A stretch of DNA of 64,000 bases from Bdellovibrionales bacterium. GTDB lineage: Bacteria; Bdellovibrionota; Bdellovibrionia; Bdellovibrionales; UBA1609. The stretch lies in contig OZ241921.1 of the NCBI GenBank assembly GCA_965203935.1, forward strand, positions 839,354 to 903,353, given 5' to 3'. This document shows positions 48,846 through 50,852 of the stretch, piece by piece (position 1 is the first letter of the stretch; each line of letters begins with the position of its first letter). The position numbers and the translations under genes were made by a program. The notes beneath the pieces were generated by a model. It was not told where the DNA came from and ran no database searches. It worked only from the letters and a program-made list of their open reading frames with translations.

Positions 48846-48874
48846 GGTTGGGATAAGCGGACTTGAACCGCTGT
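48846..48874 (-). repeat. 29-bp direct repeat of the tRNA-Val 3' end (att-like boundary of islet)
   Basis: tggttgggataagcggacttgaaccgctg is identical to 50775-50803, the CCA, acceptor and T-arm portion of tRNA-Val. It is in the same orientation and diverges immediately afterwards. Confidence 0.75.
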
Positions 48875-48951
48875 TTCGCAAATCCTTAAAATCACTGGAA
48901 AACCCGTACAATCAACTATTTAACCCATCATAACCTATCCCCGGTTTCCTC

Positions 48952-49045
48952 TCATTTGTGCCATTTATTGTGCCATTTATTGTGTCATTTATTGTGTCAT
49001 TTATTGTGCCATTTATTGTGTCATTTATTGTGCCATTTATTCCCG
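48952..49045. repeat. 13-bp tandem repeat (c/t)catttattgtg, about 7 copies
   Basis: ccatttattgtgccatttattgtgtcatttattgtgtcatttattgtgccatttattgtgtcatttattgtgccatttatt runs directly into the solo IS end. Confidence 0.85.
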
Positions 49046-49095
49046 ACTTCGACACAACACCTATGAGTTAGAGAATATTTTGAAGTTTTTATTGC
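49043..49095 (+). mobile_element. solo left-end remnant of the IS1634-like element (about 50 bp)
   Basis: cccgacttcgacacaacacctatgagttagagaatattttgaag matches the IS left end cccgacttcgacacaacactatgagttaaaaaatattttgagg, then diverges. No transposase ORF. Confidence 0.6.
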
Positions 49096-49240
49096 ATTTA
49101 AATCAGAAATTGTATAGACAGGGAACAAAAGGGACTGAAAATCACTGGACTAGGATTGTCACTCTGCATCAAAAAGATCAGAGACTTTATTTCAAAGGAC
49201 TGTATATCTTTACCTTCATCAATAATAATAATGGAGAAGC

Positions 49241-49474
49241 ATGAAAGATATTGATTTTGCCCTGGTGGAGAACACTCGCCCTCCTTTATATACCGCCATG
49301 AAATATTGGGGCAAAAAACCTCATAATATCTGGCGGGCATATATAGAAACCTACACCCCTGAAAAGGGCCTGTATTTGGATCCCTTTGCTGGAAGCGCCA
49401 TGAGTGCGTTTGAGGCTGTAAAAGCGGGCTTTATGGCATTACAAAGGTGTGGAAACAGAACAAATATTTACTGA
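49241..49474 (+). CDS. DNA methyltransferase fragment (N6/N4 family motif I region only)
   Basis: YWGKKPHNIW...GLYLDPFAGSAMSAFEAVKAG matches the HPtqKP...VLDPFaGSGTT pattern of N6_N4 methylases. It is 77 aa long, with no DPPY motif. Confidence 0.45.
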   Translation: MKDIDFALVENTRPPLYTAMKYWGKKPHNIWRAYIETYTPEKGLYLDPFAGSAMSAFEAVKAGFMALQRCGNRTNIY

Positions 49475-49946
49475 ACACACAAAACAACTGGCCCTGCTAT
49501 CCCGAACAGGCAAATTAATGGGATTTAAAGTATATATAGGCAAGCCGGAGCAATCGGACCGATATAAAGATAAAAAACTTTCAGAATATGCTGATTTTAC
49601 TGATTTAAACGAACTGAATTTGGAACAGAGAAAAAAAGACAGAATTGAAATGATAGACATGCTTTGGATCAAAAACAAGCATATTGAATACGCCGTTGAA
49701 GTGGAAAATTCCACTAAATTCACTTCAGGTCTTCAAAGGGCATCCAACTTGAATTATGATACAAAAAAAATTATGGTCTTGCCGGAGACAAGAAAACAGG
49801 AATTTTTATCCATACAGGATCCATTGTTTTTGGACACTTTTAAAAAATACAATTGGAAATATCTTTTTTATGAGGATGTGATTGTTTTACAATCCAGCCG
49901 GGCTGTGGATAAGATGTTGTTAAATAAATTCCTAAAAACACTGTAA
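49449..49946 (+). CDS. hypothetical protein, possible PD-(D/E)xK restriction endonuclease
   Basis: The ORF lies between two methylase-like ORFs. It has a weak D...(E/D)xK-like arrangement IEMIDMLWIK...IEYAVEVENSTK. No firmer evidence. Confidence 0.3.
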   Translation: METEQIFTEHTKQLALLSRTGKLMGFKVYIGKPEQSDRYKDKKLSEYADFTDLNELNLEQRKKDRIEMIDMLWIKNKHIEYAVEVENSTKFTSGLQRASNLNYDTKKIMVLPETRKQEFLSIQDPLFLDTFKKYNWKYLFYEDVIVLQSSRAVDKMLLNKFLKTL

Positions 49947-49952
49947 CAAACA

Positions 49953-50774
49953 ATGAACAAAGCGGACACAAGAAACCAATTGAATGATCTGACAGGCAAA
50001 GAATGGCTGAAACTCACCAAAAGTTGGTGGTTGAGTGAAGCATGCAAAGAGGATAAATTTGCTTTTCAGCATCCGGCCCCTTTTTTGATAAAAGACATTA
50101 AAAAGCTCATATCCCTTTTTACAAAAAAGGATATGGTGGTGTTGGATCCTTTTAACGGACTGGGGACCACTTTAACAGCCTCAGCCATGACAGGCAGAAA
50201 AGGCATAGGGATTGACCTTAATAAAGATTATTGTGATATGACAAAAAAAAGGCTAAAAGAGTTGAACCTGATAAAAGGTCAAAAAGTTATTTGTGGCGAT
50301 TCCATGCAGGAAATTAAAAAAATAAAAAAGCCTGTTGATTATTGTGTCACCTCCCCGCCTTATCACAATATTTTAAGGAATAACGGAAAGGGATTAAGAG
50401 AAAAAAAACAAGGGAGAAGAAATGGAGCCAGAACTGTTATTGAATGTTACTCAGAAGATAAAAGGGATTTGGGTAATCAAAACAGCTATGATGATTTTTT
50501 GCAGATGTTTGGCCGCATAATACAGGCTGTTTATAAAAAACTGAAAAACAAAAGGTATGCCAGCATCATTATCAGTGATTTTACAGTGGACAAAAAAGAA
50601 AAATGTGTGCAAGGGGATATTGTTCGTGTTGTCAAAAAATCCGGCTTCGAGTTTTGTGGCACAGTGGCCCTTCTTCAGAATCATAAGCCCCTTTACCCTT
50701 TTGGCTACCCTTTTGCCTATAAAATAAATCATCAGCATCAAAATATTATCACTTTTCGCAAAAACAGCTTTTAG
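49953..50774 (+). CDS. DNA methyltransferase, N6-adenine/N4-cytosine family
   Basis: FQHPAPFLIKDIKKLISLF...VVLDPFNGLGTTLTASAMTGRKGIGIDLNKDY covers motif X and motif I (HP..fP...DPFxGxGTT...GR..iGiE). CVTSPPYHNIL is motif IV ((D/N/S)PPY). Motif I precedes motif IV. Confidence 0.75.
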   Translation: MNKADTRNQLNDLTGKEWLKLTKSWWLSEACKEDKFAFQHPAPFLIKDIKKLISLFTKKDMVVLDPFNGLGTTLTASAMTGRKGIGIDLNKDYCDMTKKRLKELNLIKGQKVICGDSMQEIKKIKKPVDYCVTSPPYHNILRNNGKGLREKKQGRRNGARTVIECYSEDKRDLGNQNSYDDFLQMFGRIIQAVYKKLKNKRYASIIISDFTVDKKEKCVQGDIVRVVKKSGFEFCGTVALLQNHKPLYPFGYPFAYKINHQHQNIITFRKNSF

Positions 50775-50775
50775 T

Positions 50776-50852
50776 TTGGTTGGGATAAGCGGACTTGAAC
50801 CGCTGACCTCTACCATGTCAAGGTAGCGCTCTAACCAACTGAGCTATATCCC
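50776..50852 (-). tRNA. tRNA-Val (anticodon GAC), CCA encoded
   Basis: The reverse complement gives tgggatat agctcagttggttagagc gctacc ttgacat ggtag aggtc agcgg ttcaagt ccgct tatccca a cca. The 7-bp acceptor pairs correctly. The anticodon loop is cttgacatg with GAC at positions 34-36. T-loop is TTCAAGT. Confidence 0.85.

Follow-up and report, generated by a model that had tools for sequence, protein, structure and literature searches.

What is the short, low-GC islet that lies against a tRNA-Val gene in the 64-kb stretch of Bdellovibrionales contig OZ241921.1 studied here (64,000 nucleotides, hereafter the window), and does it still encode a working restriction-modification (R-M) system? The initial annotation, which was made from the letters alone, described a decayed genomic islet bounded by copies of the tRNA 3' end and added that its R-M-like genes may still function. 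Our analysis supports the first part of that description but not the second. Decayed islets of this sort, linked to a tRNA gene and left with an orphan methylase, are already known, and this one reflects ordinary genome decay.

The islet occupies positions 48874-50776 of the window (1,903 bp between two repeats) and lies directly 3' of an intact tRNA-Val(GAC) gene on the minus strand (50777-50853), which was recognised by both ARAGORN and Rfam (score 72 bits). The last 29 nt of this tRNA, TGGTTGGGATAAGCGGACTTGAACCGCTG, form the proximal attachment-site (att)-like copy within the tRNA gene (50777-50805). An exact duplicate in the same orientation, the distal copy, is found on the minus strand at 48845-48873, 70 bp upstream of the sod gene. 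The tRNA and the exact repeat had both been reported before, with coordinates one base off. When up to three mismatches were allowed, the 29-mer had two matches only in the 64-kb window, against 0 expected (100 shuffles). In the tRNA, the 29 nt start at position 48 and end with the encoded CCA, and so take in the T-arm, the 3' acceptor strand and ACCA. Elements that integrate into a tRNA gene and restore its 3' end are typically recognised by just such an exact copy of that end at the far side of a low-GC insert. The islet has a GC content of 36.4%, compared with 41.6 ± 2.7% for windows of the same size, which places it in the lowest 1.2%. From the repeat geometry alone, integration into tRNA-Val is likely.

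The islet is not peculiar to one assembly. A second strain, from another sample, has the same islet in the same place, with 99.84% identity over 7 kb and no insertions or deletions (indels), and the only differences within the islet are two single-nucleotide polymorphisms in the methylase gene. By exact look-up of Sod, the islet is present in all three contigs with an identical sod allele.

Three open reading frames (ORFs) had been listed for the islet, of 77, 165 and 273 amino acids (aa), and all lie where they had been placed. Judged by their homologues, the 77-aa and 165-aa ORFs derive from opposite ends of a single gene, which encoded a methyltransferase-nuclease fusion of ~805 aa. The former had been taken for a methylase motif-I fragment and the latter for a protein with a weak PD-(D/E)xK-like pattern. 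Motif I (DPFAGSA) is indeed present, and the nuclease guess was right at the level of the fold (NmeDI_C, a nuclease family), but neither ORF is a separate gene: one is the N-terminus and the other the C-terminus of the fusion. The N-terminal piece comprises 63 codons through motif I to ..EAVKAG (49241-49429, plus strand), and its open frame runs on out of frame to a stop at 49474, which yields the 77-aa ORF. It is followed by a deletion junction with an imperfect 8-bp microhomology, AAAGCnGG (49430-49433, plus strand), and then by the C-terminal 170 codons with the NmeDI_C cleavage domain (49434-49946, plus strand). The two halves are in different reading frames, with ..EAVKAG joined to LWHYKGVETEQ.., and the 165-aa ORF starts at a GTG at 49449, 5' of which there is no usable ribosome-binding-site spacing.

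The extent of the loss was seen by comparison with intact homologues. The 819-aa protein P0131 matched the 77-aa ORF at its residues 11-72 (76% identity) and the 165-aa ORF at its residues 647-818 (51% identity). The deletion corresponds to its residues ~73-646, or ~1.7 kb, and to positions ~7768-9466 of L175 (L numbers designate the loci fetched for comparison). Catalytic motif IV of the methyltransferase was in the lost part, and so, presumably, was the region for DNA recognition. With these residues gone and the halves out of frame, the suggestion that the islet holds a working R-M system finds no support.

A profile search of 1.84 billion representatives returned 993 relatives of the NmeDI_C domain. 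The full-length relatives are ~805-855 aa long, with NmeDI_C at the extreme C-terminus and the N6_N4 methylase motif at the N-terminus. The fusion gene is a single ~800-aa frame in 80 of 80 metagenome loci from JGI, barring contig ends or frameshifts, and in most of them a ~270-aa methylase, 55-76% identical to that of the window, lies 10-90 bp downstream. This operon is widespread in metagenomes (L175 7577-10825, and L093-L172), as a ~805-aa fusion (DPFAGSA ... DPPYGG, NmeDI_C) and then a ~273-aa SPPY methylase. Homologues of 170-220 aa were considered as real stand-alone small proteins, but they proved to be pieces of long ORFs interrupted by contig ends, a scaffold gap, or frameshifts in long-read assemblies of 4-5x coverage, and the idea was rejected. 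An ancestral fusion of ~630 aa, proposed from L003 and a 633-aa PADLOC model, was also rejected, as L003 is internally deleted relative to the full length given above. The L003 copy (6691-8573, coverage 5x) has an independent internal deletion, in which residues 464-631 of P0131 are gone, together with a frameshift, and the 3' end point of its deletion is only 15 codons away from that of the window.

The 165-aa ORF had no match in our local copy of Pfam, which has no NmeDI_C model, and the precomputed Pfam label PF27126 (NmeDI_C) is attached to the exact 165-aa protein and to all of its homologues. The ORF also matched positions 181-335 of 351 of the PADLOC REase_II model PDLC03534 (E 8e-7); that this is the NmeDI model rests on the common length of 351 and the Pfam label NmeDI_C. 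The protein has a restriction-endonuclease-like alpha/beta core, and its fold resembles FokI and other restriction nucleases. The invariant residues D70, E84 and E86 fall on strands predicted at 71-75 and 78-85 and are candidates for a BamHI-like D...ExE active site. The fusion enzyme family as a whole appears uncharacterised. Its relatedness to PDB entries stopped at motif I, PLSDB plasmids contained no full-length match, and the NmeDI_C profile had no confirmed match in viral contigs.

The closest view of the block before its decay is provided by L175. The window methylase falls into a 90%-identity cluster with proteins of three other contigs, among them this 2.0-Mb circular genome, whose hisS has 72.5% nucleotide identity to the hisS of the window. 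The methylases P0290, on a 7.4-kb contig, and P0291, on a 2.18-Mb contig, likewise share at least 90% identity with that of the window. The gene order in L175 is an MmeI-family gene (939 aa), a 93-aa ORF, an intact 805-aa fusion and a 274-aa methylase. Three blocks align: window 49070-49238 with L175 6980-7148 (85%), 49222-49428 with 7557-7767 (88%), and 49421-50766 with 9467-10814 (90%). Relative to L175, three segments are missing from the window, which amounts to a total loss of at least 6.6 kb. At the first junction (J1), only the final ~165 bp of the MmeI-family gene remain and all that preceded them is missing; the break lies in a ~25-bp stretch (AGAGAATATTTTGAAGTTTTTAT) over which the interior of an insertion sequence (IS) is ~72% like the gene. 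At the second (J2, TAATGG.AGAA), 408 bp with the 93-aa ORF are missing, a difference that could alternatively be an insertion in L175. The third (J3) is the out-of-frame loss of 1.7 kb at AAAGCnGG inside the fusion gene.

The segment left at J1 is the trace of a second R-M gene that was overlooked in the initial annotation. It is a pseudogene (49070-49238, plus strand) that retains the last ~50 codons (~165 bp) of an MmeI-family Type IIL R-M gene; compared with its L175 counterpart it has a 1-nt indel and has lost the stop codon, and it is fused to an IS stub. Its translation (..ENILKFLLHLNQKLYR / EQKGLKITG..KDCISLPSS) corresponds to the C-terminus of the L175 MmeI-family protein, which contains the Pfam domains MmeI_N, hel (helicase-like), N6_Mtase and TRD; the window has no full-length protein of this kind. 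Among the stop-to-stop six-frame segments of 48874-49240, this MmeI-family tail was the sole recognisable gene remnant.

The 273-aa ORF (49953-50774, plus strand) is an intact N6_N4 DNA methyltransferase (PF01555, 1e-24), in which, as had been noticed, the motif I DPFNGLGTT precedes the motif IV TSPPY (TSPPYHNIL kept). The SPPY motif favours N4-cytosine specificity. The protein is full length, with three conservative differences from the ≥90% consensus of 68 homologues, and its stop codon is 2 nt from tRNA-Val. It is the companion of the fusion enzyme, probably now left as an orphan, and as such it most likely still methylates its target.

The remainder of the islet lies between the distal repeat and the MmeI-family remnant. 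A solo IS left end (49042-49092, plus strand), of the DDE_Tnp_1 type (IS4/IS1634-like) and with the terminal repeat CCCGACTTCGACACAAC, had been identified before and proved real, with 91-92% identity to the left ends of two complete IS copies in the window. The stub is ~50 bp long, the remainder of the IS is absent, and its final ~24 bp overlap the MmeI-family remnant. The two complete copies (32728-34688 and 34947-36894) are arranged head to tail with 258 bp between them, and each has CCCGACTTCGACACAAC at both ends and a 562-aa DDE_Tnp_1 transposase; they belong to the source family of the islet stub. The stub is preceded by a tandem array of 7.2 copies of the 12-bp unit TTGTGYCATTTA (48956-49041). 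The initial annotation had correctly seen an array here, although neither the 13-bp period nor the extent (48952-49045) that it gave was right. No second copy of the array exists in the window, and the second strain has it unchanged. Between the distal repeat and the array lies a unique non-coding stretch of 82 bp (48874-48955), which had no match in any fetched locus. This stretch shows no resemblance to the remainder of tRNA-Val, which argues against the distal repeat being what is left of a second, decayed tRNA gene. Nor is the R-M block of L175 related to the 168 bp at 48874-49041, so the insert comprised more than that block.

Taken together, these features suggest a history in which a foreign element integrated site-specifically into the 3' end of a tRNA-Val gene that then stood directly upstream of sod. 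The element would have brought a new 3' end for the tRNA, and the old one, displaced, would have remained at 48845-48873. Its cargo would have been two R-M systems in the order seen in L175, namely the MmeI-family enzyme, the ~805-aa single-chain enzyme and the ~273-aa companion methyltransferase. An IS may then have inserted into the element, and three deletions, each at short sequence similarity, would have taken at least 6.6 kb (by alignment). One would run from inside the IS into the MmeI-family gene, stopping ~165 bp short of its end, with the loss of the IS body, almost all of the gene and the intervening DNA; another would account for the 408-bp difference covering the 93-aa ORF; and the third would have removed 1.7 kb out of frame within the fusion gene. 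The recombinase gene was probably lost in the IS-associated deletion at J1. As both nuclease genes are broken by deletions, restriction is, on the sequence, dead in both systems, and without a recombinase the islet would be immobile on its own. We consider it likely that this account holds as a whole, from the integration of a foreign element with two R-M systems at tRNA-Val, through the deletions, to the orphan methylase.

Divergence between the two genomes points to horizontal transfer of the cargo. The synonymous divergence (dS) of the R-M block between the window and L175 is 0.38-0.47, and that of hisS is ~2.0; the far lower value for the block indicates that it was exchanged horizontally, long after the genomes diverged. 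Searches for the machinery of integration were negative. The islet ORFs include no integrase, as had been stated before, the islet (48874-50776) contains no recombinase ORF or fragment of one, and a crude regex motif screen found no recombinase in the 64-kb window. The whole islet had no match in a phage collection, and a promoter and terminator scan found no more than in shuffles.

Several observations weigh against the history proposed above. No recombinase is present, and with the methylase stop 2 nt from the tRNA there is no room where integrase genes usually sit. The 29-mer had no match in IMG/VR or in JGI metagenomes. The L175 block has no tRNA, no att-like repeats and no recombinase, and the R-M block may also have other ways of moving. 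The search for an empty site gave none: upstream of sod, the loci of six relatives (L088, L089, L090, L092, L173 and L174) have no tRNA, and a sod-hisS pair without an upstream tRNA is seen in L088, L090, L092, L173 and L174. Among the matches listed for Sod, identity was at most 67%, and HisS homologues reached 77% at best. Without an empty site, and with relatives that lack the tRNA, the ancestral order of tRNA-Val and sod is one that we can only infer. At 0.15 and 0.07, the ratio of nonsynonymous to synonymous divergence (dN/dS) is not raised in the remnants relative to the methylase (0.13), so that either the deletions are recent relative to the divergence of the block or some constraint persists. 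Finally, the expression of the methylase is uncertain, because the closely apposed upstream ORF is no longer read in frame and a likely translational coupling to it is broken.

Some of these points would fit an origin without any integrase, either by illegitimate recombination or 'insertion with long target duplication', as proposed for R-M units of Helicobacter, or with the distal repeat as the stump of a second tRNA-Val. Such an origin would need no recombinase and would agree with the presence of the same block in L175 without att repeats, tRNA or recombinase; block homology in either genome runs out ~10 nt or less from the methylase stop, as if that end were fixed, and microhomology is found at all three internal rearrangements. 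The repeat is, on the other side, exactly the 3' 29 nt of the tRNA, and a random target duplication needs no end at the tRNA terminus. The 3' segment of tRNA genes from the T-arm to the CCA is reportedly, after Williams in 2002, the classic sublocation for tRNA-targeting integrases. A tRNA stump conflicts with the sequence after the distal copy, which is unlike a tRNA body, and the presence of 48874-49041 beyond the block shows that the insert exceeded it. We therefore regard an integrase-free origin as unlikely.

A different departure would be that the islet is still alive, in one of two senses. It could be a non-autonomous att-flanked element, that is, a cis-mobilizable element (CIME), which a recombinase from another part of the 2.03-Mb genome can still excise and move. 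Its two 29-bp cores match exactly and are undamaged, and the same R-M block has moved between genomes with a hisS dS of ~2.0; the junction of an excised circle would read methylase stop + 29-mer + TTTCGCAAATCC. The 64-kb window yielded no recombinase and no further copy of the core, the islet stands in the same place in both sampled strains, and arm-type sites, if needed, may have been deleted, so that we hold such residual mobility to be quite improbable. Alternatively, its R-M function could survive, with the 165-aa ORF as a stand-alone endonuclease and the 273-aa protein as its methylase. We give this hardly any credence: NmeDI_C is the C-terminus of a ~805-aa protein in all 80 loci and in the closest relative, and the copy in the window arose by deletion, with a junction that can be located and a shift of frame. 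What is left would be the non-specific cleavage half of a Type IIS enzyme that has lost its recognition and methylase part; there is no large subunit to partner it, and the GTG start lacks usable ribosome-binding-site spacing. The decayed, integrated element thus remains our favoured explanation.

The same cassette was found next to tRNA genes elsewhere. In 4 of the 80 loci (L103, L107, L130 and L139) it adjoins a gene for a large serine recombinase that abuts a tRNA gene, and the 3' end of the recombinase gene runs antisense into the tRNA 3' end. The recombinase and tRNA genes are at 28-1629 and 40-129 (tRNA-Ser) in L103, ~14288-15694 and 14101-14176 (tRNA-Asp) in L107, 11326-12813 and 12801-12873 (tRNA-Asn) in L130, and 9890-11404 and 11377-11450 (tRNA-Asn) in L139; that of L103 has the domains Resolvase, Recombinase and Zn_ribbon_recom. 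In two of them, L130 and L139, the fusion is followed by the methylase, the recombinase and the tRNA 3' end, which is the order and orientation toward the tRNA seen in the window, plus a recombinase. These four loci indicate that the cassette does travel on tRNA-associated elements, and their arrangement suggests a family of such elements in which the element's attachment site (attP) lies inside the end of the recombinase gene. No matching distal att repeat was found on the available contigs of the four loci, and a search for flanking direct repeats around the cassette in L003, L004, L175, L130 and L139 gave nothing convincing. A repeat pair in L103 was rejected as att, being two inverted copies of a ~90-bp palindromic element, as were tRNA-like fragments in L139, which do not match its tRNA-Asn. 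The islet itself might descend from possibly undescribed serine-recombinase integrative elements carrying the fusion enzyme and the SPPY methylase, a speculative link that we would not bet on; if it were true, the window copy may remain excisable in trans. In L103, a small Xre-type helix-turn-helix ORF (~2085-2235, ..MSQGDICRAVGLDRAQMSNIEAGKGNPTLATIEKIAQALGVTSDELLK) lies directly 5' of the fusion gene, like a controller (C) protein, and has no counterpart in the window or in L175.

Compared with known tRNA-linked islands, the islet likewise lies 3' of an intact tRNA, has direct repeats of the tRNA 3' end, an atypical GC content and defence cargo, and shows IS insertion and deletions. It differs in having no integrase, in its size of only 1.9 kb, and in a cargo gene that ends 2 nt from the tRNA. 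CIMEs of Streptococcus thermophilus are decayed, integrase-less derivatives of tRNA-linked islands, and like them the islet has att-like sites at both ends and no recombination or transfer genes. Orphan DNA methyltransferases arise by decay of the restriction gene of an R-M system, and the islet likewise has an intact methylase beside an inactivated cognate restriction gene. Here the partner that decayed had a methyltransferase fused to its nuclease, and one of the two methylase activities went with it. Eco57I with M.Eco57I is a Type IIG/IIC enzyme with a separate companion methylase, and the MmeI family is Type IIL. As in these types, the intact homologues of the window gene have methylase and nuclease in one chain, followed by a small second methylase. 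The fusion family has the methylase first and the nuclease last, whereas theirs have an N-terminal nuclease. The neighbouring remnant (49070-49238), in contrast to the fusion gene, derives from a true MmeI-family gene.

R.NmeDI of Neisseria meningitidis, 351 aa long, cleaves 12/7 to either side of RCCGGY (PMC2095814, PMC4081073) and is classed as a symmetric Type IIS enzyme (PMC4081073). The cleavage domain left in the window is Type IIS-style, a kind of domain described as lacking intrinsic sequence specificity. The 165-aa ORF belongs to the same NmeDI_C family, but in the family of the window gene this domain is attached to the C-terminus of an N6_N4-type methyltransferase instead of the N-terminal recognition domain of NmeDI, and in the window the cleavage domain alone survives of the nuclease. 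M.NmeDI is a C5 methylase, unlike the N4/N6-type companion here.

The islet offers a clean example of how a tRNA-linked defence islet erodes, by an IS insertion and three microhomology deletions, with both nucleases lost and one methylase left. Such surviving methylases are the usual source of orphans that can later gain regulatory roles. An annotation should list two pseudogenes, one made up of the 77-aa and 165-aa ORFs and the other at 49070-49238, and call the methylase solitary. Of wider note are the uncharacterised methylase-FokI-like family and its occasional link to tRNA-abutting serine recombinases.

For HisS and Sod themselves, the closest named relatives are from Bdellovibrionota/Oligoflexia MAGs, at 52-64% identity, a weak pointer to the affiliation of the host, an uncultured bacterium whose contig is circular and 2.03 Mb long. 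The surroundings of sod and hisS showed two further features. In L173, the most syntenic relative (hisS, a 148-aa ORF, an SDF transporter and a ~1000-aa ORF in the same order), the region upstream of sod (~4560-5290) is taken up by tandem repeats of ~100 bp, with no tRNA. The sod-hisS region has large ankyrin-repeat proteins next to it in the window (51045-53918), in L088 (1729-4956) and in L174 (3194-5335), and the presence of such proteins in the small (~2 Mb) genomes of this lineage hints at a host-associated lifestyle.

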